64,000 bases of DNA from Elusimicrobiota bacterium. GTDB taxonomy: Bacteria; Elusimicrobiota; Elusimicrobia; UBA1565; UBA9628. Below are positions 24,901 through 44,602 of this stretch, in pieces. The notes below the pieces were generated by a model. The model was not told the DNA's origin, ran no database searches, and saw only the letters and a program-made list of their open reading frames with translations. The stretch is from the NCBI GenBank assembly GCA_023249675.1, contig JAHFCE010000016.1:247-64246 (forward strand), read 5' to 3'. How positions within the stretch are numbered: the first letter of the stretch is position 1; the number at the start of each line of letters is the position of its first letter. The position numbers and the translations under genes were made by a program.

Positions 24901-24974
24901 CGCGGGGTAGAGCAGCCCGGTAGCTCGCAAGGCTCATAACCTTGAGGTCGCTGGTTCAAATCCAGCCCCCGCAA
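24901..24974 (+). tRNA. tRNA-fMet (initiator, anticodon CAT), CCA not encoded
   Basis: CGCGGGG/CCCCGCA acceptor stem with C1:A72 mismatch, CAAGG-CTCATAA-CCTTG anticodon arm, GCTGG-TTCAAAT-CCAGC T arm; followed by CGG. Confidence 0.95.
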
Positions 24975-26894: not shown

Positions 26895-27079
26895 GGTGTC
26901 CACCTGGGTGTCCACTGCACAGCTAGAACGATCCATCTCCGTCAAGGTCAGGCGCTCTCCGTTTGCGCTTTTGACAAGCAGTACGAGCGCCATCAAACTC
27001 CAACAAACTCACTCAACCGCTTAAAAGGCGAGTGCTCTCTCATCGAAGAACTAGACTTGGTGTCCATCAGGGTGTCCAT
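26895..27079. other. attP-like site of the tyrosine integrase (arm repeats plus core)
   Basis: GGTGTCCAY at 26895, 26907, 27059, 27071 (two pairs, 12-bp period) flanking CGC-TTAAAAG-GCG at 27018-27030. Confidence 0.6.
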
Positions 27080-28088
27080 CGAGGGATTTCCCGCTGATGA
27101 CGGGAATGATCGAATCCATGGAAGCCATCTGCGCGGCGATATGCTCGTCAGCCAGATGAGCGTATCTTCCGGTCATGGCGGGGGTCGCGTGACCAAGCAC
27201 TCGCTGCAGCGTTAGCATGTCGCGCGTCTTCATTGCGAAATACGATGCGAATGTATGCCTGGTATCATGGAACTTGAAATCTACAAGCCCCGCCCGCGTA
27301 CGGGCGCGATCGAATCTAGACCTGAGGGCAGCCTTACCCAGATTTATAACGAGCCCCTGCGAACGAGGCCCCAGTGTTTCGAGAACTTCTTTCAGCTTCG
27401 GAGAGATCGGAATACTTCGCGGCTTTTCGGCTTTCGTCTTAACTACCCGTATTACGCCGGCCGAAAACATGACATGTTTCCAGTCCAGACGGAGCAATTC
27501 GCCCCTCCGCATGCCAGTTAAGATCGCGATTAAGAGGACGCTCCTCGTCTCCACATCAGCGGCTTCCAAAAGCCTCACCATTTCCTCGGGCTCAAGATAT
27601 CGCGTCCTTTCGTTATCTTCTTTTTTTCTCGTTACAGCCTTCACCGGATTGTCTCCGAAAAAGTCACCCCAAAGTTTTGCCTTGTTAAAGATCAACAGCA
27701 GAAGGGTCCTATATCTATTCGCATTGGCTGGGCTACCATTTTGCCCACTGTCGACCAGGAGTTCGTTGTAGAATTCCTGGATTTCAGTCGCCTTAATATC
27801 GGCGAGCATTCTGCCCATAAAGCGCGCAACGATCCTCGGCATCATGTTTTTCCACGATGGCGATTTCATGCTCTGCCCGTGAAGGCGCCAGAACTTTGAA
27901 CACTGCTCATCGAAGGATCTCTTAAGAATTTGTCGCTCTGGAAAAAACTTCTGTTCGGCCATCTCAACTTTTCGTTTCTGAAGAAGCTCAACAGCTAGCC
28001 GGTGATTTGGGCCAACCTTTTCTCGCTTCCTGCGTCCCCGCTCACGATAATCGATGTACCAGTCATTCCCCTTTTTATATGTAGCCAT
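27051..28088 (-). CDS. phage-type tyrosine integrase
   Basis: Arm-binding N-terminus (WYIDYRERGRRKREKVG); GMRRGEL, TK, FHDTRH, LGH, RYAH catalytic residues intact. Confidence 0.93.
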   Translation of the reverse strand: MATYKKGNDWYIDYRERGRRKREKVGPNHRLAVELLQKRKVEMAEQKFFPERQILKRSFDEQCSKFWRLHGQSMKSPSWKNMMPRIVARFMGRMLADIKATEIQEFYNELLVDSGQNGSPANANRYRTLLLLIFNKAKLWGDFFGDNPVKAVTRKKEDNERTRYLEPEEMVRLLEAADVETRSVLLIAILTGMRRGELLRLDWKHVMFSAGVIRVVKTKAEKPRSIPISPKLKEVLETLGPRSQGLVINLGKAALRSRFDRARTRAGLVDFKFHDTRHTFASYFAMKTRDMLTLQRVLGHATPAMTGRYAHLADEHIAAQMASMDSIIPVISGKSLDGHPDGHQV

Positions 28089-28147: not shown

Positions 28148-28639
28148 TCATGCTTGGGAGTTATTATCGACCCCGTACATGCGTAAAATTTCCGCAGGAA
28201 CGATCTGCCCAAGTCGATAAGCCAATACTTTCTCAGGGCATCCTGAGCGCAAAAAATCGTGCATATACTCGTATCGAAGCGCGCCAAACGAAAGGTACGT
28301 TTGGCCGCTTAGGCTGGCAGCCAACTTTAACTGCGCAATCAGTTCTTCTGGGCTGGATTTAAAGACTAGGCCGGTTCTTTGCGGTGAGAGAGCACCCAGT
28401 GCTTTTCGCATGTCCGGCGTGAGCGGTATTCTTCGGAATTCGCCCTTAAAGTCTGGGATATCGATATCTCTGGCTGCGATATAGACGTTCTCCCATACCA
28501 AACTGGAAATTTCCGAAAGGCGGAGACCTCCATCGACAGCAAGAAGCGTGGCAGCGTAGACCTCAGGATAATGTTTGCGACAGGCTGCAAGAAGGCCGTC
28601 AATTGAGGCTCTTGAGGGCATTTTGGCGACTGTTTTCAT
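28148..28639 (-). CDS. short tyrosine-recombinase catalytic-domain-like protein with degenerate active site
   Basis: GLRLSEI and RRIPL kept; HxxR is GALR, LGH is LGQ; 163 aa, no core-binding domain. Confidence 0.7.
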   Translation of the reverse strand: MKTVAKMPSRASIDGLLAACRKHYPEVYAATLLAVDGGLRLSEISSLVWENVYIAARDIDIPDFKGEFRRIPLTPDMRKALGALSPQRTGLVFKSSPEELIAQLKLAASLSGQTYLSFGALRYEYMHDFLRSGCPEKVLAYRLGQIVPAEILRMYGVDNNSQA

Positions 28640-31789: not shown

Positions 31790-32776
31790 ATGGCAGCCAA
31801 GAAAAAAACACCCCGGAAGCCTCGAACGAGAAAATTCCAACTTTACGATGCTCCTGGGCAACCGGCAGTCGGATTCAATAAAGCCATTTACGGCTGGCTT
31901 ACAGGCGAAATGGTCGTGATGGAACATTCGCCTCCGATGGCATTCGGAGCGCATCGACTAGCGTATGATGCAAGCGTTGCGGCGATAATGAGGACGGGGG
32001 CGTCAAAGTTAGAGGCCCATAAAAAAGCATTATCGAATCTAACAGCGTTGCTTTTCAGTATCGACAACAACACGGAAATGGCCGCGCGTCTGGCCAGTGC
32101 CCCGATTAATCCGACGGGATTTAGGAGCACGCTTTCGCAAGGTATGGCCAAGAATGCTGGCGAGAATTTCATCAATACGATCGTATATGCACTATCGGAC
32201 ATTCTCGCGGATCAGAACGACGTTCTAGTTGACAAAGGCTGCCCGCCCTTATTAAAAAAATTCCTCACGGTAAAACGACGATTCAACGGTAAAAATGGAA
32301 CTTCACGGGACTTAGACCTAAAGATTGAAGTGGATTTCTGCATCTTTTCAAAAGCCGACCCACTCAACGCAATTATAGTCAGCGGGAAGACTCGACTAAA
32401 AGAAGTATTCCACATAGGAACAATGTGGAAGCTTTTCTTCGACATGATTGGGGATCCCCACTGCATGGAAAAATGGGGGCTACAAAGCGAGGAGCTAGGC
32501 GAACAGAAATTGATCTATGCGTTTGCTACGGCGGACATGATTGCTGAGGGTGGCCGAAAAACGCAAGGCCCCGATGTAGGGCCCGATGGCGTTCGAAACC
32601 TGCTCGCCCTCGACGCATCCTTCTTCGACTACGTCTTCGTATCGAAAACCTACCCGACAACAGCTACGCATGTCTCGCCCACACTGGATCTCGCTGCCGG
32701 ACGCGAAGCGCTTTTCCACCAGATGGGATGCCTGCTAGATCTTGTTCAGCAGAAGTTCAACCTGCGGCTTTCGTAA
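31790..32776 (+). CDS. putative type II restriction endonuclease (PD-(D/E)XK)
   Basis: AGENF, IEVD...SGKTRLKE resembling the SxKxxxRER motif; convergent with a C5 MTase; ATG 31790 chosen. Confidence 0.7.
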   Translation: MAAKKKTPRKPRTRKFQLYDAPGQPAVGFNKAIYGWLTGEMVVMEHSPPMAFGAHRLAYDASVAAIMRTGASKLEAHKKALSNLTALLFSIDNNTEMAARLASAPINPTGFRSTLSQGMAKNAGENFINTIVYALSDILADQNDVLVDKGCPPLLKKFLTVKRRFNGKNGTSRDLDLKIEVDFCIFSKADPLNAIIVSGKTRLKEVFHIGTMWKLFFDMIGDPHCMEKWGLQSEELGEQKLIYAFATADMIAEGGRKTQGPDVGPDGVRNLLALDASFFDYVFVSKTYPTTATHVSPTLDLAAGREALFHQMGCLLDLVQQKFNLRLS

Positions 32777-34888
32777 AGAACGTTTTATCGCGCGGCTAAC
32801 GCCCCGCTCGAACGCAAACAGCCCGTCGCTCACATCGAGCGAGTTTAGCCGCTCAGCGAATTTATGAGCGAGAAGCGGCGGGACCGCATTTCCGATCATC
32901 GAATAACCCTCAACCACTCCTACCGAACCGAACGAAAACCAATCCGGAAATGATTGGACTCGCGCCGCTTCCCGCATACTAAGGCCGCGCGCTTCGAACG
33001 GGTGGGAATACCCGTAAGTATCTTTGCCGATGTGCGCAACTATGGTCTTGCACGGCCGACTCGCATCCAATCTTTCGAACCAGTCTCCATGCACATTGTG
33101 ACCACGACCGAGATAGGCCTGGTCCAAGAGATGGTTCTTCCCCTCCAACTCGGCCGGCAACTTGCACTCCTCAATCATAAGGCGAAGCAGCAAACTGCCA
33201 TTGATCCGACTTGACAGATCTCCCAATTGCTCCGCCGTCGGCAAACCTTTTATTTTTCCCTTCTGTTTTTTAACAAACGCATGGACTTGGGAAATTACCG
33301 ACTCCAATTCAAGATAGGTTGGTGAACGACGCAGCTTGTAATCCATCCACCTCTGTCCCGGAGCGAATTTCTCTAACAGCGCTTTGTCATCAGCCCTTAG
33401 TCTTCTGGCAATATGAGCATCGACGAGCGCTGGGGAATCGATACTGCCAACCTGCGGCTGCCGCACCCATTCGATGTACTGTTTTTCTGCTTCATCCATT
33501 CGTCCATCAACCAGGGTATAAGCGGCAACTTTATCACCAGTTCGACACTGAGCGCCCCCAGGAACGAATTGAAGTGGGGCATCAAGACCCGCCAATGCGA
33601 CTCCCAAGGAAACTCGTTTACTGTGAGTCGGAATCGAAAAGAACTTTTCGGCGGTGCCCTTTGGGGTCGTGGCCGAATTAAATCCGGCCATTATATAACG
33701 CAGCCGATTTTGGGGAATTCCAAAATCTGATGCTGTAATGACTTTAGAGACAACATGATAATTTAGGCGCGCACCAGAGAGTTGCGCGATAGCTTCCTCG
33801 AGCAAAGCGGGTGCATCCATCGTCCCGTTGGGGGTTTTTAGAACACTTTCAAAATTACGCACATTTTCGAAAATGAAAACATTCGGCTTAAGAGCTTCAA
33901 GAAACAGGACATAGCGGTATAGCAACGCGTTGCGCTCGTCACCGAACTCTTCTGACGACCATGAATATGATCCCTGTTCCCGCAACCTACTCATCACTGG
34001 CCGGCCAATACGACTAAACCCTTTACATGGCGGCCCTCCGAGAATGAGGTGAACGCGACGATCGTCAGTATAAAGCGCCACGATGGCTTTTGATTTTGCC
34101 GCAAGAAAAGCGATGCGCGTAGCAGCACGTTCCGCTCGCCATTCGATCCAGAGAGCTCTCAAAGCCTTGCCTTGCTCCGAACCAAGAAACGCAACAACCG
34201 ACTTCGCTCGCTTCGGAACAGGACTCTGCTGACCTGAAGCCGTCTTTTGTGCGGCCTCACGCAATTTCCCGATTTCCGAATTCCAAAGAGAGTTGGCGAT
34301 TTTTTTCTCTCTCCGCAAAACCTCATCGATAGAATGGACGCGCCCTGTCGGAGGGGTCTCCAGCAAGGAATATTCCTGCCCCCAAGGCAGGCCGATTCCG
34401 CTCAGCAAACTGTCTGCCTTGTACACAGAGCCGAGTCCCAATCGATCAAGAAACGCTCTACAAATTCCAGTCTTAAAGGCCTCTTTGTCAATCGAGCCTG
34501 CGGATTGGACATAATCAGGCGATTCAAATAGAGTTCGAGTCTTTATCTGAAAGGATTCATCGAGTCTACGAAGTTGGCCGAGAAAGATATTTAGCCCCAA
34601 CGCCGAAAGATCCCCCTGGAGAGCCCTATCCGGTGTCGCATATGCGTAGTGAACGAGGTAGTAAAGGAGCACCTCATCGGCACTGCCGAACCACGTAATA
34701 TCGCAAAGGCGACCCGTTGTCCATTCTCCAGCATGCGAATGGTTGCTGTTATAGCAGCGCACAGCGGCTGCATCAATATCAATACCGAGAATCGTCCGAT
34801 AAGTCCGATCGCCCTTGAAGCTGTCGAAGCCCAAACTGAGCCCCCCACAGCCGCAAAACAGATCTACGACTTTAATTTCTCTGGTCAT
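32735..34888 (-). CDS. DNA (cytosine-5) methyltransferase, 717 aa
   Basis: DLFCGCGG (I), GGPPCKGFS (IV, Cys at aa 288), FENV (VI), QNRLR (VIII), REAARVQSFP and IGNAVPP (IX/X). Confidence 0.93.
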   Translation of the reverse strand: MTREIKVVDLFCGCGGLSLGFDSFKGDRTYRTILGIDIDAAAVRCYNSNHSHAGEWTTGRLCDITWFGSADEVLLYYLVHYAYATPDRALQGDLSALGLNIFLGQLRRLDESFQIKTRTLFESPDYVQSAGSIDKEAFKTGICRAFLDRLGLGSVYKADSLLSGIGLPWGQEYSLLETPPTGRVHSIDEVLRREKKIANSLWNSEIGKLREAAQKTASGQQSPVPKRAKSVVAFLGSEQGKALRALWIEWRAERAATRIAFLAAKSKAIVALYTDDRRVHLILGGPPCKGFSRIGRPVMSRLREQGSYSWSSEEFGDERNALLYRYVLFLEALKPNVFIFENVRNFESVLKTPNGTMDAPALLEEAIAQLSGARLNYHVVSKVITASDFGIPQNRLRYIMAGFNSATTPKGTAEKFFSIPTHSKRVSLGVALAGLDAPLQFVPGGAQCRTGDKVAAYTLVDGRMDEAEKQYIEWVRQPQVGSIDSPALVDAHIARRLRADDKALLEKFAPGQRWMDYKLRRSPTYLELESVISQVHAFVKKQKGKIKGLPTAEQLGDLSSRINGSLLLRLMIEECKLPAELEGKNHLLDQAYLGRGHNVHGDWFERLDASRPCKTIVAHIGKDTYGYSHPFEARGLSMREAARVQSFPDWFSFGSVGVVEGYSMIGNAVPPLLAHKFAERLNSLDVSDGLFAFERGVSRAIKRSLRKPQVELLLNKI

Positions 34889-35100: not shown

Positions 35101-35144
35101 CGTACATATGTTCGATTATATACTAAGAAGGGCGTTTCCGTCAA
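35101..35144 (-). promoter_or_regulatory. promoter upstream of the MTase with overlapping LexA (Cheo)-like box
   Basis: TTGACG-18-TATAAT followed directly by CGAAC-ATAT-GTACG (35114-35101). Confidence 0.55.
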
Positions 35145-35161: not shown

Positions 35162-35213
35162 TCGGAATCCATCCCCATCTGAGTCCGCGATCGGCAGAAT
35201 CGGATGGTTCGAC
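35162..35213 (-). other. degenerate attC-like site
   Basis: GTCGAAC, 5-nt spacer, GATTCTGCCG (compare GTTTCTGCCG at the 38113 site), hairpin; R' box decayed. Confidence 0.4.
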
Positions 35214-35225
35214 GGCTGCCGCTGA

Positions 35226-36947
35226 TCACTGTGCCGCGACTATCTCGATATCTATTTTGCCGCCACCATCGCGAAGAATTCTAATTCCGTTGGCGGTATT
35301 TTCAAAATCGACATAATCCCGAAGCCGTTCTCTGTCATATCTGCGCTGAAATTCAGAAACCAGTGATTTCAACAATTCTCTCGCACCATTCTCATTAAAG
35401 AGAACATCATCCCAATCGATCGCAGCAGCAATCAGAGCGCCAAGATAGGGGGCGTCGTTTTCATGTTCATATGTCCCCCCAACAAGAAGTATCGCCAAAA
35501 AAGCTTCCGCGTATCTGCCGCCGTTTTGCATTTTATTCAGTTCAACGTACTGACTAAAAGCCTGTTCTGCGAGATCGTTCTTAAAGCGAATGGGGATACG
35601 GGCGCACGTTATGACTGAATGTATATGTTGACCCAGCGCGATCATGCTGCTCTTTATGGGATTTCCATTCTCATGATCAGCAGCGGTACTGGCAAGATTG
35701 ATGTTTTGCTGAACAACCGGCAGTTCTTCAAGAGTGGAAATCCAAGAACGGAGGGCTCTCGTGATCTCATAAAGCACGAAACTGTATTTCGTGGGGAACT
35801 CCCGAGTCAAATCAATCTTCTCAGATCGCGGTGAATAGTTGTCACAAATTCGATCGGTCACATGTGTCATGTAGTAAAGCCACATGTGCCATTTTATTCC
35901 CTTGTGGATAGCCTCACTGACCATCAGATCAAAGAAAAAAATGCCGGCGGAAAGAGGCGATTCATAGCGCTGGTTGTCCATGTAATCTTCAAGAGGAAGG
36001 TTATAGTCGTCCTGTTCGGGGTGCTTTCCCAATTCAGAAAGATACGCGATCATTTTTTCGCCGATTGGGCGCCAAATCTGCACTCGTTCAGCCTCAGCTG
36101 GATCCCCCAGGACTTGAGATAAGATCCGATTGCTCTCGGGAAATTGATACCGATGGCCGCGCGCCATGTTCTGGTTATTTTTTAGTTCCGAGTACAGGAC
36201 GCTTGAACTGTCGCCAAGCTGAGCCTGAAAGAAGTTCTCAATGAAGGGGCCTCCGATTGAAGCTTCAAGCTTAAGAATTGAAAGAGCGACGTATGGTCGA
36301 TTCTCTGAGCACCATACGGCGAAAGGTTTATTGCTCAAAATTGTCGTAAGGATTTGGCTGGCCAACGATTCTGCAGCTTTGCCGGATGGAACAAAATCAA
36401 CTATCCAACGGAGTTGCCGGGGCACATTTAATCGCTTTCTATTTTCAATGGAGTCAAAGAAGCTGGGCGGTCCCAGTAATCGATGGAAATTGGAACGAAA
36501 GAATCGTCCTCGCGAAATATCAACGAGAGCTTTAATGTGGTCCTCAACAACGGTTGCGAGACTTGAGAAATCCTTCCCCCCGATTTCCGCATCTACGAGA
36601 TTCTTGAAAGCAGCGAGCCCGGATGGCCGGAGACGGAATCTGGACATTCTAAGAATCAGAATCAAAGAAACCAGGAGAATTATCAGGTAACTTAAGCTTT
36701 GTTCGGAAAGTGAGTAGGCCGCGAATTCCGTATCTTTCCACTCACCCAGAGGCAAGATTTTTCTCAAGAAGCTGTAGTACTGAAGGGCGTGGGTGATAAC
36801 GAGGCCGGTTACGGCCAAAAGCAAATCGAAAGTGCGGAATCGAAGCACTAACTCTCGTTGTCGCTCTTTAGGCAGTATCGCGTAAACGGCGAGAACCAGC
36901 GCGATGATGGTGAGGAGCCCGTTAGTGTCCACTACGCGCCCCCACAT
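35226..36947 (-). CDS. uncharacterised 573-aa protein with 3 N-terminal TM helices and large helical soluble domain
   Basis: LLTIIALVLAVYAIL, LLLAVTGLVITHAL, LSYLIILLVSLILIL; motif GIFFFDLMV..HMWLYY; real start may be GTG 36932. Confidence 0.85.
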   Translation of the reverse strand: MWGRVVDTNGLLTIIALVLAVYAILPKERQRELVLRFRTFDLLLAVTGLVITHALQYYSFLRKILPLGEWKDTEFAAYSLSEQSLSYLIILLVSLILILRMSRFRLRPSGLAAFKNLVDAEIGGKDFSSLATVVEDHIKALVDISRGRFFRSNFHRLLGPPSFFDSIENRKRLNVPRQLRWIVDFVPSGKAAESLASQILTTILSNKPFAVWCSENRPYVALSILKLEASIGGPFIENFFQAQLGDSSSVLYSELKNNQNMARGHRYQFPESNRILSQVLGDPAEAERVQIWRPIGEKMIAYLSELGKHPEQDDYNLPLEDYMDNQRYESPLSAGIFFFDLMVSEAIHKGIKWHMWLYYMTHVTDRICDNYSPRSEKIDLTREFPTKYSFVLYEITRALRSWISTLEELPVVQQNINLASTAADHENGNPIKSSMIALGQHIHSVITCARIPIRFKNDLAEQAFSQYVELNKMQNGGRYAEAFLAILLVGGTYEHENDAPYLGALIAAAIDWDDVLFNENGARELLKSLVSEFQRRYDRERLRDYVDFENTANGIRILRDGGGKIDIEIVAAQ

Positions 36948-36971
36948 GGCCGAGCTTTCCCTTTAGCCAGT

Positions 36972-38099
36972 TCACTCGTAAACCTCGATCGTTCCGTTAT
37001 TCGCCGCTCGGATAGCACGCGATCCTCCGTCTTGAGAGCAAACGACTGCCATGCACTGCGGAAGAGAGTGGCAGAAACGGAATGCGGATCGGTGTCTCGT
37101 GCCGAATGCTTCGACTTCAACACTACGATGATCCGGCATGACGGATATCTCATCAACGTCCGCCTTGGAGATGATTTCTGCACCAAACCCTAGAATTCGC
37201 AAACGATCAGTGAGAACAACGGCTCCGTCAACGGTTGCAAGATCTCCCACCCGATCGACAAGTTCTTTAAGCTCCGATTCCGCGCTTTCAATCTTGTGCC
37301 GATCCGTGTCTTCGCTAAATTGCCGCATAGCCGTTTTTAGAATCGGCCAAATCTGATTATCATCACATTGATATTTTGAGCGGACATGGGGTACAAGGCT
37401 CTCCCTAGCCAGGGTGTCGGGCACAAGAAGGACGGTCCCGCCATGTCCACTGTGAGCGATGCGGGAAAAGATGCTCATAAAATGACCCGGATATACGACA
37501 ACTTGCGGTGACCAGCCACCTTCGTAGCTGAGATCGGCCCAAAGCTCCGTGTTGACTGCCGAAATAAATTCCGAGACAGGACCGAAGATTCCGGACTTAA
37601 AATTCTCAGGGATTAGTTGCCCACCGCGTAGAGTCAAAAAGACCTTCTCATCTCGACCGACCTCCAGGGTGCCAGGAGAGATTGCCGAGATCTTTAGTTG
37701 GCTCCAGGCCGAACCGCATAGGCCCCAAATTGATGGGGGACCAAAAGCGCTTGGCCAATTGATACCAATCAACGCTTGGCCACTCATTGCGACGGGTGCC
37801 AGTCGTCGTAGCTCATGGACCGAGAACTCTCTAGGCTCAGAGAACACCGTTGGCTGCCTCGTCTTGTCCGGATTACACATTACCGCGCTAAACTGTGTTT
37901 TTCGGCGCTCCTCCATTGTGAAGCTTGCGTGGTAAATGGTGTCGAGAAGTTGGCCGAGAGAATGATCGTTAGGTAGCGGAGGTACATCCATATCGTAGCG
38001 GCGCCACTCTGGCCAAGTCTTTTTGAGTGGCTCAATAATGTCGATTGGATATCTGCTCGTCGTTTGCGGCCGATTGAAGAGACGGTTAAATATGCCCAT
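36972..38099 (-). CDS. diadenylate cyclase (DAC/DisA_N) domain protein with N-terminal putative sensor domain
   Basis: ATVDGAVVL (DGA) and FGTRHRSA (RHR), then VVCSQDG; no TM or HhH, so not CdaA/DisA; N-terminus resembles DACNV-type domains from memory. Confidence 0.85.
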   Translation of the reverse strand: MGIFNRLFNRPQTTSRYPIDIIEPLKKTWPEWRRYDMDVPPLPNDHSLGQLLDTIYHASFTMEERRKTQFSAVMCNPDKTRQPTVFSEPREFSVHELRRLAPVAMSGQALIGINWPSAFGPPSIWGLCGSAWSQLKISAISPGTLEVGRDEKVFLTLRGGQLIPENFKSGIFGPVSEFISAVNTELWADLSYEGGWSPQVVVYPGHFMSIFSRIAHSGHGGTVLLVPDTLARESLVPHVRSKYQCDDNQIWPILKTAMRQFSEDTDRHKIESAESELKELVDRVGDLATVDGAVVLTDRLRILGFGAEIISKADVDEISVMPDHRSVEVEAFGTRHRSAFRFCHSLPQCMAVVCSQDGGSRAIRAANNGTIEVYE

Positions 38100-38112
38100 T
38101 TGATTTCTGTCC

Positions 38113-38193
38113 GGCTAACGCAGACGCTCTTCCGCAGCGGCTTCAACGGTCCAACCAAACGAGGCCGCTGGCGGCAGAAACGAATGGCTAGAA
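38113..38193 (-). other. attC-like site
   Basis: Minus: TTCTAGC-cattc-GTTTCTGCCGC...AGCGGC/GCCGCT stem...GCGGAAGAGCG-tctgc-GTTAGCC, 13 nt before the DAC ATG. Confidence 0.7.
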
Positions 38194-38204
38194 AGCATCT
38201 AATT

Positions 38205-38546
38205 TCAACTTACTGGCGAGTCTGCCTTATTTAATATTGGCCGGCGACCATGCGTCGTCTGGTACTGGTTGAGCCAGGTACGCTCCAGCTTGGGTAAATT
38301 ATTTTTGTCGTACTCTGAGAAGTGAAACCAAAATGCTTTTCCATTTTCCGTTAGTCCTATCTTTCCCGGGTTATCGAGGTGCTGCTGGAATCGTTTATTA
38401 AGATCAACACTTAAGCCGATGTATAGAATTGCACCGTTGAATGTCGACAATATGTAGCACCCTGCGATTTTGGGAACCTTACGGAAATCCAGTAATTTGA
38501 AAAGGACTCTAGTTGAGGGTTGAGGGGCGAGTTCTGCCACATTCAC
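38205..38546 (-). CDS. GIY-YIG nuclease
   Basis: GCYIL..ILYIGLSVDLNKRFQQH, LE, PILN; 4-nt overlap with the DGQHR gene. Confidence 0.85.
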   Translation of the reverse strand: MNVAELAPQPSTRVLFKLLDFRKVPKIAGCYILSTFNGAILYIGLSVDLNKRFQQHLDNPGKIGLTENGKAFWFHFSEYDKNNLPKLERTWLNQYQTTHGRRPILNKADSPVS

Positions 38547-39670
38547 AGCTCAATATCTCCGCGACCGCTCGATTTGTGAAGGGCTTTGGCCATCTCCGTA
38601 TTAATCACATTCACAGCGCCTGAGTTGAGATAGCTAGCTTTGCCACCCTTAACCCAGAATTCAGTGTGACCGACGCCGGCATAATCGCCGTCCACATTCT
38701 CAAACGTCTGACGCAAGAGAGCCTCCATCGTGGCCACCTTAAAGTTCGGCATATTTATCATCTTGTTCATAAATGGCACGCAGAATTTGCAAAAAAGTTC
38801 TACGCCGTTGTATTTAAAAAGAACAGTCGGCTCATCAGTTCCGAGGATATTTGTTATCGCCTTCCAGTAATTAAGAAAGATGCCGAGTTGTTTGTCCTCG
38901 GGGAATGCTGCAATTGGATTGTTGGCGACTAGAACATAGCGCTTGATCGACTTCACAAAGCTTTTCTGGTTTACGGTGGCCTCGTCATTTTCCTCATTTG
39001 CCATTTCGATTCTGTTGAGCCAAGGGCTCTCTTGATGGGTATTCAGAAAGTCGACATATTTGAGCGCCTTCTCATCTTCACCTTTGTGAACCGTATTAGC
39101 GATCCATTTGGGTAAATTGGGAATATCCTCCAGCTCCATTGACTGCGTAAGACGCGCGAAGATTCGCTGCTCAACACCCTTTTCAACGCTCTTCTGCGTG
39201 GTATTTACAATCAAGAAATGGCACATCTGAGCGATTTTCGGCAGATTGATTGCGATGTTGACTGGGACTTCAAAACTGAGGACCCGCGGGTCTTTTCCCG
39301 CTGCCATCTTAAGTCCTTCCACCCGGTGCTGCCCGTCAACAACGCTAAAGGGGCCGATTTTCTCAATGTCTATCTCGATCGTGTTATCAGCAGAGCTAAA
39401 AGGGATGCTCTTGTGAGTCGCCAAGAAAATGCTTGTGGGCAGAAAGGCATCTAGGGTTTCTTGACCAGCTTCAATATAGTCAGCCAATTTTTTTGCCCGC
39501 CCCTTGTTCAATAATCGCTGATACCCCTTATCGTTAACATTCTCTGGATCTAGTGTCTCTACGCTGTAGAAGCTTGGTATTAAAAGGTCTGAGACTCTAA
39601 GGGATGTCGCATAAAGAGTGAGGGAGCCTTGTTTGACGAGTGCCGCCGGACGCTTAATTACTTTAGACAT
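38543..39670 (-). CDS. DGQHR domain protein (ParB-like / DndB superfamily)
   Basis: YQRLL..R...LADY, LPTSIFL, VVDGQHR, F..VNTTQKSV. Confidence 0.9.
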   Translation of the reverse strand: MSKVIKRPAALVKQGSLTLYATSLRVSDLLIPSFYSVETLDPENVNDKGYQRLLNKGRAKKLADYIEAGQETLDAFLPTSIFLATHKSIPFSSADNTIEIDIEKIGPFSVVDGQHRVEGLKMAAGKDPRVLSFEVPVNIAINLPKIAQMCHFLIVNTTQKSVEKGVEQRIFARLTQSMELEDIPNLPKWIANTVHKGEDEKALKYVDFLNTHQESPWLNRIEMANEENDEATVNQKSFVKSIKRYVLVANNPIAAFPEDKQLGIFLNYWKAITNILGTDEPTVLFKYNGVELFCKFCVPFMNKMINMPNFKVATMEALLRQTFENVDGDYAGVGHTEFWVKGGKASYLNSGAVNVINTEMAKALHKSSGRGDIEL

Positions 39671-39696
39671 GTTGTCTCCTTCCGAATCCGTCTACC

Positions 39697-39724
39697 CTTC
39701 AACGCAGAGGGCGAGCGGCGGCCG
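39697..39724 (-). other. right half of an attC-like site
   Basis: CGGCCGCCGCTCGCCC-tctgc-GTTGAAG, close to the right half of the 40533 site (CGGCCGCCGCCCACCC-tcggc-GTAAGAA). Confidence 0.5.
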
Positions 39725-39728
39725 ATAC

Positions 39729-40526
39729 TCACTTTGACAAATCAATAAACATAGGCAGTTTCACCAGGCCAGCTTGTACGAGTGTGAGGAGCGCAATCAT
39801 GAGCGTTAGTCCGACCATCGCCCATTGAATCCGAGTATTTTCCCGATGCCTACGCTCGTCTTCTTCAAACTTTTCGATAGTCGAAATTGTGCGTCCCGTA
39901 ACTACATACCGATGGTTTTGCTTGCCTAACTCGCCACTTTCACAGAGCGACTCAAGATGCAGTTCAACCTTCCTCTGCTCGGTATCCCGATTAGGATGAA
40001 GCACCCACATCAGAGAATTCAATTCAGTCATTACGTCTATAACTGAAAGCGGATGTCCGTTGTCGACATGGCGGTCCCTAAGTAATTTCAGTATCCGGAG
40101 GCGTTCAACTCGCTCGAGACTCCGCATGTTAAATACATACTGCTGAATTCTACTGAGAAGTCGTTGTAAGTGTATCTTGAGATAGAGAACGGGGAAGAAC
40201 CATGTTCGAGCCACATCGTGCATCCCCCGATAGCGGACCTCACTCAATCCGTAATAGTGCAGGATCTGAATGGTGGCGGGATCAATATCCGTGTAATTCA
40301 ATTCGAAATCTGTAGCGAATGAATGTCCATCCCAACGTTTCCCACGAAGAATCGCCCCCTCCATGCTGCGCGCCCAAAAATAAGGATTAGCGGCATCGTC
40401 TATCCGTACGCTAAAGCAGTTGATCCGCTCCCCAGCTTCACCTGAACGAGGAACTCTATCGGAGCAGCTTCGATTCAGAATGAATTTCAATAACCGTCTA
40501 TAGAGCTTGTCGATAAATTGGTTCAT
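39729..40526 (-). CDS. hypothetical protein, winged-helix-like region plus C-terminal TM
   Basis: LHLESLCESGEL..YVVTGRTISTIEKFEEDERRH followed by IQWAMVGLTLMIALLTLVQAGLV. Confidence 0.8.
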   Translation of the reverse strand: MNQFIDKLYRRLLKFILNRSCSDRVPRSGEAGERINCFSVRIDDAANPYFWARSMEGAILRGKRWDGHSFATDFELNYTDIDPATIQILHYYGLSEVRYRGMHDVARTWFFPVLYLKIHLQRLLSRIQQYVFNMRSLERVERLRILKLLRDRHVDNGHPLSVIDVMTELNSLMWVLHPNRDTEQRKVELHLESLCESGELGKQNHRYVVTGRTISTIEKFEEDERRHRENTRIQWAMVGLTLMIALLTLVQAGLVKLPMFIDLSK

Positions 40527-40532
40527 AGATTT

Positions 40533-40613
40533 TTCTTACGCCGAGGGTGGGCGGCGGCCGCTTCAACTGTCCCCCCAAACGAGGCGACCGGCCGCTCTAC
40601 CCAATAGTTAGAC
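40533..40613 (-). other. attC-like site
   Basis: GTCTAAC overlapping the TAA of the upstream gene, 5-nt spacer, L boxes GGTAGAGCGG/CCGCCCACC, R' GTAAGAA; centre GCTTCAAC.GTCC..CCAAACGAGGC shared with the 38113 site. Confidence 0.75.
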
Positions 40614-41366
40614 GCCACCTTGCCCCCTGCCCGACGGAAGCGGATACGACGTTTGCGTCGCCGTTACTGTAACGTCTCCGAACGTCAATTTGCCCGCATC
40701 TTCCGGGAGGCGCTGTTTCAGTAAATCCTGATCTTCTTCCGGTAAATCTTCGAGTGACTGCTTGAGGTTCTTAACTAGGTCCATCGGTTTGCCGCTGTGC
40801 GTTTTAGGTGCTCCGGAATTCAGATCAGCTAAGTAGTTTTCTACCGACGCTTTGAAATCAGCAGTGAACGTATCAATGTTGATGATGAGGCGATTGGAGT
40901 GAGCCGTCTTAGTTGCTGATGCCACTTGTCCAGCGAGATCAGTGAATTGCAGGTGCTTATCCGAAAGCAGCCTGCCGCGGCGAGTCGGATAAAATCCGGA
41001 ATCAGTCCCAAAGCCGAGATAATGGCTGTGCAGAAGCCCGCATCGGTAGCAGACATAGAGTGCCTTTGTGCTCCCCTGATAGGTCGCCGGAAAATAATGC
41101 GTCAGGAAGGCCGTAAAACTTTCCTCGGATTTCCCACCCTGATTCTTGTAGCCAAGCAGAGCCCGTCCGCAGGTTTCAATACCAACGCAGACGAGTTGCA
41201 AGGTGCCGCCATTGGATTCGCCCAGGGGGATGGGCCAGCCTCCAACCGACTGCTGAGGAGTTGATTTCCAGACTTCAGGCTTTGAGTGTAAATTGGCAAA
41301 GATGTCCTGAAAGATCATGCGGACAAACCGGCGCGACTTGCTTTCGAGCTTGGCATCCATTTTCAT
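40608..41366 (-). CDS. HEPN-like protein
   Basis: GIETCG...FTAFLTHYF...LYVCYRCGLLHS (RX4H); start moved to ATG 41366. Confidence 0.65.
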   Translation of the reverse strand: MKMDAKLESKSRRFVRMIFQDIFANLHSKPEVWKSTPQQSVGGWPIPLGESNGGTLQLVCVGIETCGRALLGYKNQGGKSEESFTAFLTHYFPATYQGSTKALYVCYRCGLLHSHYLGFGTDSGFYPTRRGRLLSDKHLQFTDLAGQVASATKTAHSNRLIINIDTFTADFKASVENYLADLNSGAPKTHSGKPMDLVKNLKQSLEDLPEEDQDLLKQRLPEDAGKLTFGDVTVTATQTSYPLPSGRGQGGV

Positions 41367-41373
41367 TGTTGGC

Positions 41374-41417
41374 GTCGAACGCTTAGCCGCCCCCTTTGCA
41401 TTCTGGCGGCAACGAGA
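41374..41417 (-). other. cassette-junction remnant (GCCGCC/GGCGGC hairpin plus GTTCGAC)
   Basis: GCCGCC-N-GGCGGC hairpin followed by GTTCGACGC just before the next ATG; same layout as 42075. Confidence 0.4.
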
Positions 41418-42063
41418 TAAATTGAAGATAGTCATCACCAATCTTCGTTGTCGTCTTCGCCATGATTCCGCTTCGGCTCATTGTTATGCCATAGCTGTCA
41501 CGCTTAAGCGACCCGAGGCTCTTTCGATAAATATCATCGAGCATTGATTCCAAATGCCCTCGCGTTAGTTTCGGGAAAGCCGGCTCAAGTAAAGCTCCGA
41601 TTCCGCCCATCGAAATTCCATCCAATCGCTTCTTCAAATCAGGCAAGGAATTAGCAAATGCTTCCGGGTTCGCCAAAATCTTTAGTAGCCGGATGTGTTC
41701 GCCAGTCAAATTCTCAGTAACGCCAAGGAAAAACTCGGCCTCAGATCCATCCGACGGTTTCAAAGCCTCATTCGCGACTATCCCCCTGAAGGCTTCAAGC
41801 TTATCAGGATGTCGCTCCAGGCTCATCATGCGCAGAGTTTTTACAAGAGTGATGTGAAACGCTTCGGACCTAAGCTTTGAGTCGTCGAGCCTTTTCTCAA
41901 GGCGCTTAAGGTCCTCACCAACAAGCCGCATCGCCTCCTTCTGTTTTTCCGCCATAGTACCCGGAATGTAATCCTGTAGCAAGACAGCCAGGGGACCGCC
42001 AATGGGTCCAAGCGCAGATGTCAGTGCTACCAGTGCAGTCTTCAGATGATCTTGTCGTTCCAT
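41383..42063 (-). CDS. hypothetical protein, Abi-alpha/DUF4393-like
   Basis: SEAFHITLVKT...DKLEAFRGIVAN...FFLGVTENLTGEHIRLLKIL pattern, recalled similarity only. Confidence 0.55.
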   Translation of the reverse strand: MERQDHLKTALVALTSALGPIGGPLAVLLQDYIPGTMAEKQKEAMRLVGEDLKRLEKRLDDSKLRSEAFHITLVKTLRMMSLERHPDKLEAFRGIVANEALKPSDGSEAEFFLGVTENLTGEHIRLLKILANPEAFANSLPDLKKRLDGISMGGIGALLEPAFPKLTRGHLESMLDDIYRKSLGSLKRDSYGITMSRSGIMAKTTTKIGDDYLQFISLPPECKGGG

Positions 42064-42074
42064 TTGTTATGTGC

Positions 42075-42138
42075 GTCTAACGCCGCCCCTGTGCTGTGGC
42101 GGCTATCGAGATTCTTACGCTAACTCAAGTGGTTAGTT
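42075..42138 (-). other. attC-like site
   Basis: AACTAAC overlapping the TAA of 42133 and GTTAGAC 11 nt before the ATG of 42063; inner L pairing poor. Confidence 0.55.
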
Positions 42139-42690
42139 GGACGCCTTGCCGGCAACAGGGATAGCGGAATAAATTTCACTGAGGCGTGAATCGCAATTAT
42201 TTTTTATGGCTTCATCGCTACTCATCTCTTCGTAAAAGCCGTCTAGGCCCTTTTCAAATGCATTCGTGAGGTTCTGAAACGATGTCGCGACCATCGTCTC
42301 GCTATTCGGTAGTGACAAGATAATCTTCTGGAGATCTGAAACTTGGCCGGATCCCCACGAGTAAAGCAGCCAACGAGCCTTCCCCGCGCTGCTTGCCGTG
42401 GATTCCGCAGACGCGGTGTGCAGGATTGAGCAGCGTGCTCCCCAAAGATCAAAGGCAGTGACCTCTGGGAGATGTGGAATGAGATACTTGTCGCAAAAGG
42501 CTCTAAACCGCGTCCCGGCCTCCTGATCACTCCCAGCACCACGTATGTATGCGAAGACGTCGATGCTGGCATAAAGAATCATGAGGTAGGGGAGAGGGAG
42601 CGTTGGCTTGCCCAATGCTCGAAGTGCTCCGAGCTGCTGCTCTCTGAGATAGTTAAAGAGGGTAAGCGTATCAGGCCTTTTTACATTCAT
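42133..42690 (-). CDS. HEPN-like protein
   Basis: YASIDVFAY...FRAFCDKYL...DLWGARCSILHT (RX4H). Confidence 0.7.
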   Translation of the reverse strand: MNVKRPDTLTLFNYLREQQLGALRALGKPTLPLPYLMILYASIDVFAYIRGAGSDQEAGTRFRAFCDKYLIPHLPEVTAFDLWGARCSILHTASAESTASSAGKARWLLYSWGSGQVSDLQKIILSLPNSETMVATSFQNLTNAFEKGLDGFYEEMSSDEAIKNNCDSRLSEIYSAIPVAGKASN

Positions 42691-42695
42691 AGTGC

Positions 42696-42812
42696 GTCTA
42701 ACCAGCGTTAGACCGACCGGCTAAATTCGGTGTCAAAATTACAATTCTCAGATTATATCGCTAATACAACCATTTAGTCGGAATCAATCTAGCTCTAGAC
42801 AATGCGTTAGAC
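42696..42812 (-). other. attC-like site at the array head
   Basis: Perfect GTCTAAC / GTTAGAC ends, inner IR CCGGCTAAAT / ATTTAGTCGG; GTGCGTCTAAC identical at 42071 and 42692. Confidence 0.65.
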
Positions 42813-42912
42813 TGCCGGCTTAAGCGTGGGGTCGCTATTTGCGCGCCGATGGTGGTGGGCTAAACTGCACAGGCAGTTCACGCAGGAAGCGGTCCGCATT
42901 CAAGAATTGACC

Positions 42913-42925
42913 GCCCCCGCAACCA
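42913..42925 (+). repeat. attR: displaced tRNA 3' end GCCCCCGCAACCA
   Basis: Identical to 24965-24975 plus CA. Confidence 0.9.
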
Positions 42926-42947
42926 TTTAGCATTGTTTTTCGTCGAG

Positions 42948-42992
42948 AAACGAGCGAAAACCCTGGTCCAAAAGGCCGGGGTTTTTCGTTTT
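42948..42992 (+). terminator. intrinsic terminator (original tRNA terminator)
   Basis: GAAAACCCTGG..CCGGGGTTTTTC stem followed by GTTTT. Confidence 0.7.
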
Positions 42993-43009
42993 CTGCCCCT
43001 CGCCAGGCG

Positions 43010-43124
43010 AAGTGGGACATGATCCCGACCGGGATCGATCTCCTGGTGACTCATGGGCCGCCTCATGGAATCCTTCGACGGGACAATGTTTATCGACGCG
43101 TCCGTCAGGAACGAGAAGCTGTGA
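43010..43124 (+). pseudogene. metallophosphoesterase remnant with internal deletion
   Basis: WDMIPTGIDLLVTHGPPHGIL joined, in the +1 frame, to DGTMFIDASVRNEKL, resembling the family C-terminus. Confidence 0.6.
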
Positions 43125-43180
43125 CCCGGAATGGAAGCTCTTTGTATTTTATCTGGCTTAATAATCAATATATTATTTAC

Positions 43181-43210
43181 TTGACAAATAGGACAATTAC
43201 CTGATATATA
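43181..43210 (+). promoter_or_regulatory. promoter of the AbiE pair
   Basis: TTGACA, 18 bp, extended -10 TGnTATATA in an AT-rich patch. Confidence 0.65.
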
Positions 43211-43223
43211 GAAAGAGGGGCTT

Positions 43224-43991
43224 ATGGCGACACGATCCTTTGAACTGCGCGAATTCTTCCACTTAGCCTTGCTGCGCCACCTTGCGACGAGGTTGTCCGG
43301 CCGCGACTACGCGGTCAAGGGAGGCATCTGCCTTCGTTTCTTCCACCGCTCGCCACGGCTCTCCCAGGACATGGACGTGGACATCGTCTCCAACGTCCGC
43401 CTCAAAACACTCCAGAACGCCGTGGATTCCATCCTCGAAGGCCAAGCCTTCGCCTCCTCGCTCCTGCAGCAGGGGATCACGCGCATCACCGCAAGCAAAC
43501 CTAAGCAGACTGAAACCACGCAGCGCTGGAAGGCGGCTCTCTACGCCGGCGCGGGCGAGCCGCTGTCCACCAAGGTCGAATTCAGCCGGCGCAACGACCG
43601 GATCACCGGCGCTACCGGCATGCCGGACGCCGAACTCCTGCGACAGTACCGTATGACGCCGTTCGCAGCACAGTTCTACGATGCGGCATCCATGACCGCC
43701 CAGAAAATCGCGGCCCTAGCCTCGCCGTCGCGCTACGCCCTGCGCGACCTCTTCGACCTCCACCACCTGCTGCGCGTCGTCCTCGTTAAGCCTGAGGACG
43801 CGGCCAAGATGCTCGATACGAAAACGTTGGAAAACGCCGCGGACAAGGTCGGGAGCTTCACCTTCGGCGACTTCAAGGAGCAGGTCCTGCCCTACCTGTC
43901 CAGCGACCTGATCGATCTCTATCGGAAAGAGGACGCCTTCGAACGGCAAAGCTCGGAGGTCGCGCAGGCGCTTCTGGAGATGCTCCAATGA
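43224..43991 (+). CDS. abiEii: AbiEii-family nucleotidyltransferase toxin (type IV TA)
   Basis: VKGGICLRFF..SPRLSQDMD, KIAAL, RDLFDL. Confidence 0.9.
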   Translation: MATRSFELREFFHLALLRHLATRLSGRDYAVKGGICLRFFHRSPRLSQDMDVDIVSNVRLKTLQNAVDSILEGQAFASSLLQQGITRITASKPKQTETTQRWKAALYAGAGEPLSTKVEFSRRNDRITGATGMPDAELLRQYRMTPFAAQFYDAASMTAQKIAALASPSRYALRDLFDLHHLLRVVLVKPEDAAKMLDTKTLENAADKVGSFTFGDFKEQVLPYLSSDLIDLYRKEDAFERQSSEVAQALLEMLQ

Positions 43992-44602
43992 GCGTCTCCG
44001 CGGCTTCGCTCCTCAAGCTGATCCAGCATCACGACCTGAGAGTCTTCACCTCGGCTGACATCATCACGCTCACCGGCCTCACGCCGGTCGCCGCAACCAA
44101 GGCGCTCACGCGTCTGGCCGGGCAGGACCTCGTCGGCCGGATCAAGAGGGGCGTGTGGGTCAGCAAGCTCTCCGCGGACCTGAACCCTTATGAGGCTGTG
44201 CCGTATCTCAGAGCGCCTTGGCCCGCCTATGTCTCGCTCTACAGCGCCCTGGCGGATTACGGAGTGGTCGAGGAGATTCCGCACGTCGTCTACGCTGTGT
44301 CCACCGCCCCGCCTAAACGCTACCGGACCTCCATCGGAGAGTTCAGCATCCACCACCTGCCCGAACGGCTGATTTGGGGCTACGCGATCAAGCAGCAGGG
44401 ACAAGCGCGCTATCCGATCGCCGATCCCGAGAAGGCTTTTTTGGACCTCGTCTACCTGGCGCTGATCCCGCGCTCCCCTCTGGAACTGCCGCACAAGCGG
44501 GAGCGCAAGTGGGACCTCGACAAAGAGAAGCTCAAACGCTATGCCGCGCGGTTCAAGTTCGAGCCGCTAACGAACTGGCTGAAGAAGGAGCGCCTGCACT
44601 AG
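43988..44602 (+). CDS. abiEi: AbiEi-family antitoxin
   Basis: N-terminal wHTH (LTRLA...RIKRGVW), YVSLYSALADYG, IADPEKAFLD; ATGA overlap with the toxin. Confidence 0.88.
   Translation: MSVSAASLLKLIQHHDLRVFTSADIITLTGLTPVAATKALTRLAGQDLVGRIKRGVWVSKLSADLNPYEAVPYLRAPWPAYVSLYSALADYGVVEEIPHVVYAVSTAPPKRYRTSIGEFSIHHLPERLIWGYAIKQQGQARYPIADPEKAFLDLVYLALIPRSPLELPHKRERKWDLDKEKLKRYAARFKFEPLTNWLKKERLH

Follow-up and report, generated by a model that had tools for sequence, protein, structure and literature searches.

The locus described here raises the question of whether a run of co-oriented genes, with attC-like sequences in the gaps between them and no integron integrase beside it, is an integron and, if it is, whether its cassettes can still move. 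It lies in the genome of an Elusimicrobiota bacterium (assembly GCA_023249675.1, contig JAHFCE010000016.1, positions 247 to 64,246), within a stretch of 64,000 nucleotides (nt) that was analysed as a whole and is called the window below. The minus strand of the window carries eight co-oriented open reading frames (ORFs), G1 to G8, within positions 35226-42690, as a preliminary description of this DNA had stated and the ORF list confirms. The GC content of this stretch is 47-53%, compared with about 65% for the genome and 62-69% for the flanks. In the short gaps, heptamers of the RYYYAAC type can be read near the stops and heptamers of the GTTRRRY type just before the starts, in agreement with the same description, which had placed R boxes at these points and had named its sites by the 3' ends of the GTTRRRY-like boxes.

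In integrons, the tyrosine recombinase IntI inserts circular cassettes at the G|TT of the attI site, and each cassette carries its own attC, a folded single-stranded hairpin with R'' and R' boxes, an imperfect L stem and bulged bases. We consider it likely, with good confidence, that the window holds an integron of a lineage specific to Elusimicrobiota, with an attI site and leader, six cassettes on the same strand (comprising the eight genes) and no integrase beside it. The array is probably largely fossilised. The host, which comes from groundwater, belongs to the Elusimicrobiota: identities of its GlgB to named Elusimicrobia proteins are 75-86%, and proteins named for other phyla reach 70% at most. 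The attC family described below is therefore native to the phylum of its host.

An integron attC family in Elusimicrobiota

A 20-base pattern taken from the centre shared by two of the window sites was scanned against one genome per prokaryotic species. Matches were found at 41 loci in 22 assemblies, every one of which carries the label Elusimicrobiota, Elusimicrobia or Endomicrobium; metagenomes contributed 83 further loci. The motif often occurred in several copies per locus, always on the same strand. The related loci are mostly contigs of metagenome-assembled genomes (MAGs), and counts per genome are uncertain.

An alignment of 49 copies, from which the window was left out, revealed a common architecture (R'' box gCCTAAC, 4-nt spacer, 17-bp imperfect stem, 22-nt loop, 5-nt spacer, R' box GTTAGgC) spanning 81 nt from outer box end to outer box end, with RYYYAAC ... 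GTTRRRY as the consensus of the boxes. The stem is paired in 94% of cases, and 8 of its 17 pairs show compensatory changes on both sides. Its covariation score (0.351) was reached by none of 500 shuffles and exceeds that of all slid controls, in which pairing falls to 27-55%. Two single-base bulges are located on the R''/L'' (5') arm, at columns 19 and 27. Conservation of the loop in the 49-copy set is an artefact of the way in which the copies were retrieved, as sub-families with other loops were later found with a covariance model. One of these (locus L116, 653-763, minus strand; L030, 5496-5583, plus strand) has the same stems and R boxes with the loop TCGGTGArGA..., which means that the 22-nt loop by which the family was first defined is not universal.

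The covariance model R1, specific to this family, was built from integrase-linked arrays of other genomes only. In 284 kb of related loci it detected 133 sites with a median spacing of 643 nt (33 of them in a single 32-kb stretch of a complete Elusimicrobiota chromosome), and within any contig all sites lie on one strand. An integron integrase is located upstream of, and co-oriented with, the arrays in six related loci; the one in L030 scores 433 bits with TIGR02249 (cut-off 265), and homologues 70-86% identical to it are encoded in L050, L051, L061 and L120, with a C-terminal fragment in L003. A further property of these arrays concerns the joints between cassettes. In 89 of 97 junctions of the relatives, the R'' box is perfectly complementary, at four variable positions, to the R' box of the previous site, whereas it matches its own R' in 9 of 97 sites and random partners average 2.38 of 4. 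Such complementarity with the previous site arises because circular cassettes excise and insert at G|TT. Given the linkage to IntI and this junction signature, the repeat family is an integron attC rather than a set of mere hairpins.

In the six complete integrons, intI is followed by a conserved leader of about 160 nt and then by the first cassette. The leader has a TAyAAT box and terminates in GCCGACCAgCATAATCAcAA|GTTRRRY, and a repeat is present about 105-120 nt upstream of this core. Four of the six (L030, L120, L051 and L003) have a pair of genes inserted between intI and the leader; in L030 (4531-5056) these match the BrnT toxin (PF04365, 93 bits) and, weakly and below the cut-off, a BrnA/CopG-like antitoxin. 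A profile made from these intI-proximal leaders, again excluding the window, matched 32 related loci once each, and in every one the match precedes the attC sites and has their orientation. The GTTRRRY that closes the leader and the R'' box of the first attC are complementary in 30 of 31 arrays, and the end of the leader can therefore be taken, in the relatives, as the attI crossover point. Between this crossover and the first attC of L030 there are approximately 200 nt of degenerate tandem repeats of the AACGGCG type (5268-5476), and a similar stretch follows an attC in L002.

Many leader-bearing arrays are not accompanied by an integrase. Among the 21 in which this could be determined, 15 have no intI within 1.5-7 kb upstream, i.e. 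L008, L010, L013, L016, L023, L028, L029, L032, L033, L041, L058, L078, L082, L108 and L122. In these 15, core genes abut the leader and the junction between attI and the first attC is perfect, except for L041, in which the terminal GTT of the leader could not be located. One MAG (STA_59) contains three leaders (L009, L025 and L028). To judge by these observations, it seems usual in Elusimicrobiota for an array to be unlinked from intI.

attI and attC sites of the window and their state

At the head of the window array, the leader profile gives a match at 42694-42774 on the minus strand (18.4 bits, E 4e-5) that is unique in the window; the next match has E 0.88, and the best of 30 locally shuffled windows reached 6.1 bits. 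This element contains a TATAAT (42752-42747), which aligns with the conserved TAyAAT box of the relatives, and an attI core, GCCGGTCGGTCTAACGCTG|GTTAGAC (42721-42696), whose crossover-type GTTAGAC (42702-42696) ends 5 nt before the ATG of G1. A 10-mer, GCCGGTCGGT, is shared with the L120 site. From the conserved box, it may be supposed that the leader carries a promoter function for the cassettes. The left part of the core is repeated 96 nt upstream as the 16-nt sequence GCCGGCAGTCTAACGC (42804-42819, minus strand), which may correspond to the upstream repeat of the relatives. Retention of attI and leader allows the breakpoint to be placed just upstream of attI. No convincing BrnT/BrnA or intI remnant was found upstream of the leader, and the segment between the leader and the AbiE genes (42835-43204) contains only short overlapping ORFs with no Pfam match, one of which reads ...DLLVTHGPPHGIL... 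and by eye resembles a fragment of a metallophosphoesterase. It is probably pseudogene debris at the breakpoint.

With the filters off, R1 accepted only two sites in the whole 64 kb, all other matches having E > 0.3. Both are full-length and on the minus strand, 2,420 nt apart: 38109-38197 (89.8 bits, E 1.5e-22) and 40529-40617 (82 bits, E 2.3e-20), the latter being 83% identical to a site of L033. They share CTCGTTTGGnnGGACnGTTGAAG (38141-38163 and 40561-40583), which is reproduced in no shuffle of the window and is not expected by chance; the shared central sequence noticed in the preliminary description is thereby corroborated. Of the three sites that had been called clear there, those at 38113 and 40533 are upheld by these scores, whereas the one at 42696 has no L stem and is the attI/leader element. 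The check proposed at that time named the attC covariance model of IntegronFinder; a family-specific model from other genomes was used in its place and yielded two very strong sites.

Each of the two full sites has one R box off consensus. At 38109-38197 the R'' box is TTCTAGC (38193-38187), with AAC changed to AGC, and the R' box GTTAGCC (38119-38113) is intact; the substituted A occurs in 126 of 131 family sites. At 40529-40617 the R'' box GTCTAAC (40613-40607) overlaps the stop codon of G3, and the R' box is GTAAGAA (40539-40533), with GTT changed to GTA at a T which occurs in 131 of 132 family sites. The bottom-strand consensus folds are weak (-9.8 kcal/mol for 38109-38197 and -10.0 kcal/mol for 40529-40617, against a family mean of -16.7), and about 90% of family sites fold more stably than either (91% for 38109-38197). 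Free minimum-energy folds of the individual window sites have unremarkable z-scores, consistent with decay.

The other gaps contain less. Two of them hold half-sites and one or two hold collapsed ones, and the four sites regarded earlier as partial fared unequally. The 5' half after G8 (35175-35215, minus strand; R'' box GTCGAAC, spacer and L'' arm) is significant in nhmmer (E 0.0036, third-best match in the window) and shows 75% identity, over 32 nt, with the corresponding half of 38109-38197; its 3' half is unrecognisable. This supports the partial site at 35162. The one at 39697 is marginal: a 3' half after G4 (39698-39726, minus strand), composed of an L' arm and an R' box GTTGAAG (39703-39697), is the fourth-best match (E 0.22), stands in the correct position and orientation, lacks the 5' half and has 87% identity with the corresponding segment of 40529-40617 over 23 nt. 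Support for the site at 42075 is weak. It corresponds to a degraded remnant after G1 (42071-42146, minus strand), to which R2, a broader second-iteration covariance model, assigns 15.3 bits (E 0.11) and whose 3' arm nhmmer aligns at 42104-42074 (E 2.4); an R''-like AACTAAC overlaps the stop and the R' box GTTAGAC (42081-42075) is kept, while the 5' arm and the loop are lost. The site at 41374 is supported by none of R1, R2 and nhmmer. To judge by its letters, GGCTAAG-C-GTTCGAC after G2 (41374-41388, minus strand) may be a fully collapsed attC of which the R boxes alone are left. A relaxed pattern (R'', short spacer, R') was found 12 times in the window with 7.4 expected; it is not enriched, and for this reason the gap at 41374 and the 5' part of 42075 are not claimed as sites. 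R2 added no new sites to the window, and its third-best match (41711-41767), which falls inside the coding sequence of G2, was taken as chance. The best sigma-70-like match of the region, TTGACG-18-TATAAT (11 of 12 positions, 35115-35144, minus strand), falls within the last attC, in its degraded 3' half, and faces a 68-amino-acid (aa) ORF (35107-34901) and a methyltransferase gene.

Neither the TIGR02249 profile nor tblastn with the L030 integrase and IntI1 (used as a probe only) found an intI gene or remnant in the window, in line with the absence of IntI claimed previously. The full-length tyrosine recombinase encoded 15 kb away (27051-28088) scores 52 bits with TIGR02249, against the cut-off of 265, and is not an IntI; a truncated one (28148-28639) matches no NCBIfam model. 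A cluster of attC sites lacking integrases (CALIN) is defined (PMC4889954) by two or more attC sites that occupy the same strand, are separated by less than 4 kb and have no intI in their vicinity. The two full sites fit this definition, so the locus was rightly called a CALIN. Since the element at 42696 is an attI with leader, the locus is better described as an attI-bearing integron without an adjacent integrase than as a stray array fragment: of the parts of a complete integron, attI is present at the array head and intI is not.

According to the proposed mechanism, the cassettes would have entered through IntI at the G|TT of attI, each bringing its own attC. These sites would then have decayed, two remaining full-length with substitutions in near-invariant triplets and the others becoming truncated or collapsed, and the array would by now be largely frozen. 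Transcription probably starts in the leader and runs through the cassettes as one unit, and the cargo may be the reason why the array persists. The view that the array is fossilised is based on the triplet substitutions, the weak folds, the half and collapsed sites, the chance-level junctions and the lack of variants; present-day mobility of the cassettes is doubtful because of the degraded sites. Cassette shuffling was sought in the same population, and in four groundwater metagenome runs the array was identical, with no joints or variants. The preliminary description would have been abandoned if no site had been scored and no shuffling seen; two sites scored strongly, and cassette exchange is evident in the relatives.

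Several observations weigh against an integron of six cassettes led by its own attI. Only two window sites pass a model. The leader match covers only part of the model (positions 77-160 of 163) and is the weakest of 33; the -35 region of the leader is not conserved and a sigma-70 promoter scan was empty at the leader. None of the four readable window junctions is complementary at all four positions (two at 3/4 and two at 2/4, with 2.4/4 expected by chance), and given this near-chance level the outer cassette boundaries are placed by inference only. Finally, the search for intI covered the window, and the rest of the genome may encode one.

The last point leads to an alternative in which the array still functions as a cassette store, with an integrase acting in trans from another place in the genome. 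In the relatives, 15 of 21 arrays lack a nearby intI and yet have perfect attI/attC junction signatures, so that unlinked arrays seem normal in the phylum; the site 38109-38197 keeps an intact R' GTT, and half of the published CALINs are found in genomes that encode IntI (PMC4889954). On the other hand, both full window sites are substituted in near-invariant triplets and belong to the roughly 10% least stable folds of the family, three or four further sites are truncated, the junction signature is lost, and no variant was seen in the four metagenome runs. Few other attC sites of the family occur in the same sample, none of them at the depth of the host. We regard trans service of this array as unlikely, and a largely fossilised integron as the preferred explanation.

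It is more improbable still that only two or three true cassettes entered a pre-existing defence-island operon, of which G1, G2, G7 and G8 were never cassettes, the sites beside them being due to chance. The sites at 41374 and 42075 without statistical support fit this idea, as does the lack of an attC remnant between G7 and G8, and a cassette composed of both genes would measure about 3 kb; only 4% of the intervals within arrays are spaced like this. It is, however, contradicted by the attI/leader directly upstream of G1, by a homologue of G1 that is a cassette elsewhere, by the significant 5' half-site after G8 and by the co-orientation of all eight genes, which have very short 5' leaders like those of cassettes. 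That the intergenic hairpins are repetitive extragenic palindromic (REP)-like repeats or terminators with no integron connection, an idea to which GC-rich hairpins between genes and a window free of integrase lend some colour, can be given hardly any credence, as a T tract is lacking and no Rfam family matches the window sites, whether at gathering thresholds or at E <= 1; members of the family accompany IntI and attI, keep strictly to one orientation within arrays and show a junction complementarity that is explained only by site-specific cassette exchange.

Cassette cargo and genomic surroundings

The first four cassettes each contain one gene (all on the minus strand) without a Pfam domain: G1 (42133-42690, 185 aa; PHROG 12390, E 2e-6), G2 (41383-42063, 226 aa; PHROG 26838, E 1e-12), G3 (40608-41366, 252 aa from the ATG at 41366) and G4 (39729-40526, 265 aa, with a C-terminal hydrophobic helix; PHROG 7611, E 2e-22). 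The PHROGs matched by G1, G2 and G4 are of unknown function. When homologues of G1 to G8 were sought in 0.66 Mb of related arrays, only G1 gave a result. Its full-length homologue (23% identity, E 2.7e-9) stands directly behind an attC in L116, a locus on an unrelated metagenome contig, where the 5' boundary is similar (GTTGACGCAC in L116, GTTAGACGCAC at G1) and the other neighbours differ; this is the one direct sign here that a window gene circulates as a cassette. A paralogy between G1 and G3 was considered for their loose common motif (hydrophobic-I-D/E ... R-C-x-L-L-H) and dropped (pairwise E 0.23).

The fifth cassette contains two genes on the minus strand, which overlap by 4 nt and therefore form one cassette. 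G5 (38543-39670, 375 aa) encodes a DGQHR-domain protein resembling DndB/DpdB (TIGR03187, 105.9 bits; PF14072; PADLOC DpdB, 1.4e-11), and G6 (38205-38546, 113 aa) a protein with a GIY-YIG nuclease domain (PF01541, 34.7 bits).

The sixth cassette is composed of G7 (36972-38099, minus strand, 375 aa) and G8 (35226-36947, minus strand, 573 aa), which starts 24 nt after G7. The product of G7 combines a DACNV domain (PF21751, 69.6 bits) with a DisA-type diadenylate cyclase (DAC) domain (PF02457), whose 25.1 bits lie just under the cut-off of 27 and in which the DGA and RHR motifs can be read. It has 471 homologues; in the three contexts examined, a tightly linked variable gene comes next and McrBC, TIR or DUF4238 genes are neighbours. 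G8 (PHROG 13820, E 8.6e-48), with three N-terminal hydrophobic helices and an all-alpha body, is rare (8 homologues found, in a Pseudomonas prophage tail region, beside an Hsp70-like gene and near QatB/QueC/KAP genes). Its AlphaFold2 model has a pLDDT of 75.5, and a fold search with it against the PDB gave no match; sequence searches of the PDB with G5, G7 and G8 returned nothing useful. The idea that G7 and G8 form a conserved pair was rejected, for the homologues of G8 have other neighbours and are not linked to DAC genes.

In short, the cargo consists of a DACNV-diadenylate-cyclase gene with a predicted membrane partner, a DGQHR and GIY-YIG pair, and four orphans. PADLOC called no known defence system and found nothing for G1-G4, G7 and G8; it gave only weak single matches, DpdB/DndB for G5 and UzuA (E 0.002) for G6. 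Cassette-borne defence has been documented elsewhere (bioRxiv 10.1101/2024.07.02.601719), and a role in anti-phage signalling was recently shown for DAC enzymes that have other "DACN" domains (bioRxiv 10.64898/2026.08.10.743927). On the basis of domain content and the neighbourhoods of homologues, defence against phages or mobile elements is a plausible hypothesis for the role of the cargo, and the most likely one.

The array is part of a low-GC region (47-57%, against about 65% in the flanks) that extends from a tRNA-Met gene (24901-24975) to about 43.2 kb, its right edge coinciding with the truncated leader. A large serine recombinase (571 aa, 24956-26671), the ORF of which overlaps the 3' end of the tRNA gene by 20 nt, is followed by the full-length (345 aa) and the truncated tyrosine recombinases mentioned above, and the region also encodes a PD-(D/E)XK protein and a 717-aa cytosine methyltransferase. 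A recombinase gene next to a tRNA gene and a deviant base composition, both of them marks of a tRNA-integrated island, are present. Neither a second copy of the tRNA-Met 3' end (at most 3 mismatches) nor a suitable direct repeat was found between 20 and 48 kb. The carriage of the array by an integrative element, asserted in the preliminary description, is accordingly made plausible by the tRNA gene, the three recombinase genes and the drop in GC, but lacks flanking att repeats; such carriage is possible, and it is equally possible that a chromosomal integron locus has decayed here and that other elements have inserted next to it.

Among the neighbouring genes, the C5 cytosine methyltransferase (32735-34888, minus strand), whose sequence has a long insertion, follows immediately on the downstream side of the array, and a homologue of it occurs inside a related array (L046, 2122-3252, plus strand) on the strand opposite to the attC sites. 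Just beyond the low-GC region, an AbiEii toxin/AbiEi antitoxin pair (43224-44602, plus strand) is divergent from the array. Elsewhere in the window, a single ORF of 3,346 aa occupies 5842-15882 (minus strand).

Relation to known integrons and defence systems

Compared with the CALINs described by Cury et al. (2016, IntegronFinder), the window array is alike not only in the number, spacing and single strand of its attC sites and in the lack of a nearby intI, but also in that the sites are less similar to one another than in large arrays, the cassettes are mostly of unknown function and the whole is thought to be a degraded integron. It differs in keeping attI and leader at the array head, attI not being normally identifiable in CALINs.

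With sedentary chromosomal integrons (the Vibrio superintegron, and Xanthomonas integrons with inactivated intI) the Elusimicrobiota lineage shares a lineage-specific family of highly similar attC sites, long co-oriented arrays, a GC content below that of the genome, toxin-antitoxin genes in the platform and decay after loss of the integrase. The differences concern the phylum, the orientation of intI (the same as that of the cassettes in the six complete relatives), the BrnT/BrnA pair between intI and attI in four of these six, the identifiable attI, and the many arrays that have attI without an adjacent intI. We take the co-orientation of intI to resemble the "inverted integrase" arrangement of Treponema-type integrons. 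Like the class 1 attI1/Pc region, the attI described here is a short double-stranded site with the G|TT crossover at its end and a direct repeat upstream, and would be associated with a promoter for promoterless cassettes (to judge here by the TAyAAT box only), whereas there is no sequence similarity between the two.

As regards the cargo, G7 resembles the DACs of two signalling systems, DS-2C (in a CBASS variant) and Panoptoo (PanS/PanE), in its DisA-type domain with DGA and RHR motifs, its N-terminal sensor-type "DACN" domain, and the location of its homologues in neighbourhoods like defence islands with a variable partner gene next to them. DS-2C is defined by DACNG plus DACNH, and Panoptoo by a minimal PanS with an S2TM-beta effector (bioRxiv 10.64898/2026.08.10.743927). 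In contrast, G7 has DACNV instead of DACNG or DACNH and falls outside these classes; its partner G8, a 573-aa all-alpha protein with N-terminal hydrophobic helices, is not an S2TM-beta effector; and homologues of G8 are not consistently linked to DAC genes. Similarly, G5 has the DGQHR domain of DndB and DpdB, but the partner genes of the Dnd and Dpd systems are absent and G5 is paired with a small GIY-YIG nuclease in a two-gene cassette.

Full-text literature searches found no paper linking Elusimicrobia with integrons and attC, and the IntegronFinder 2.0 paper does not mention Elusimicrobiota. Taken alone, the window locus is an ordinary CALIN, i.e. a known type of element in a little-studied phylum, and the observation of arrays unlinked from intI may matter more than the locus itself. 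It is possible, if on balance doubtful, that Elusimicrobiota possess a distinct integron lineage, not described before, in which several attI-led arrays per genome are as a rule unlinked from the integrase and are served by one trans-acting IntI, the window array being one in decay, and that the DACNV-cyclase cassette with its membrane partner represents a new class of anti-phage DAC signalling. Well-characterised features of integrons (attC structure, attI and junction signatures) are hereby extended to Elusimicrobiota, and an attC model and an attI/leader profile are ready for this lineage. In the window, the path by which an integrase-less array decays can be read site by site, from triplet substitutions through half-sites to collapsed R boxes, and the cassettes, notably G7-G8 and G5-G6, offer compact, self-contained units as candidates to be screened for defence.

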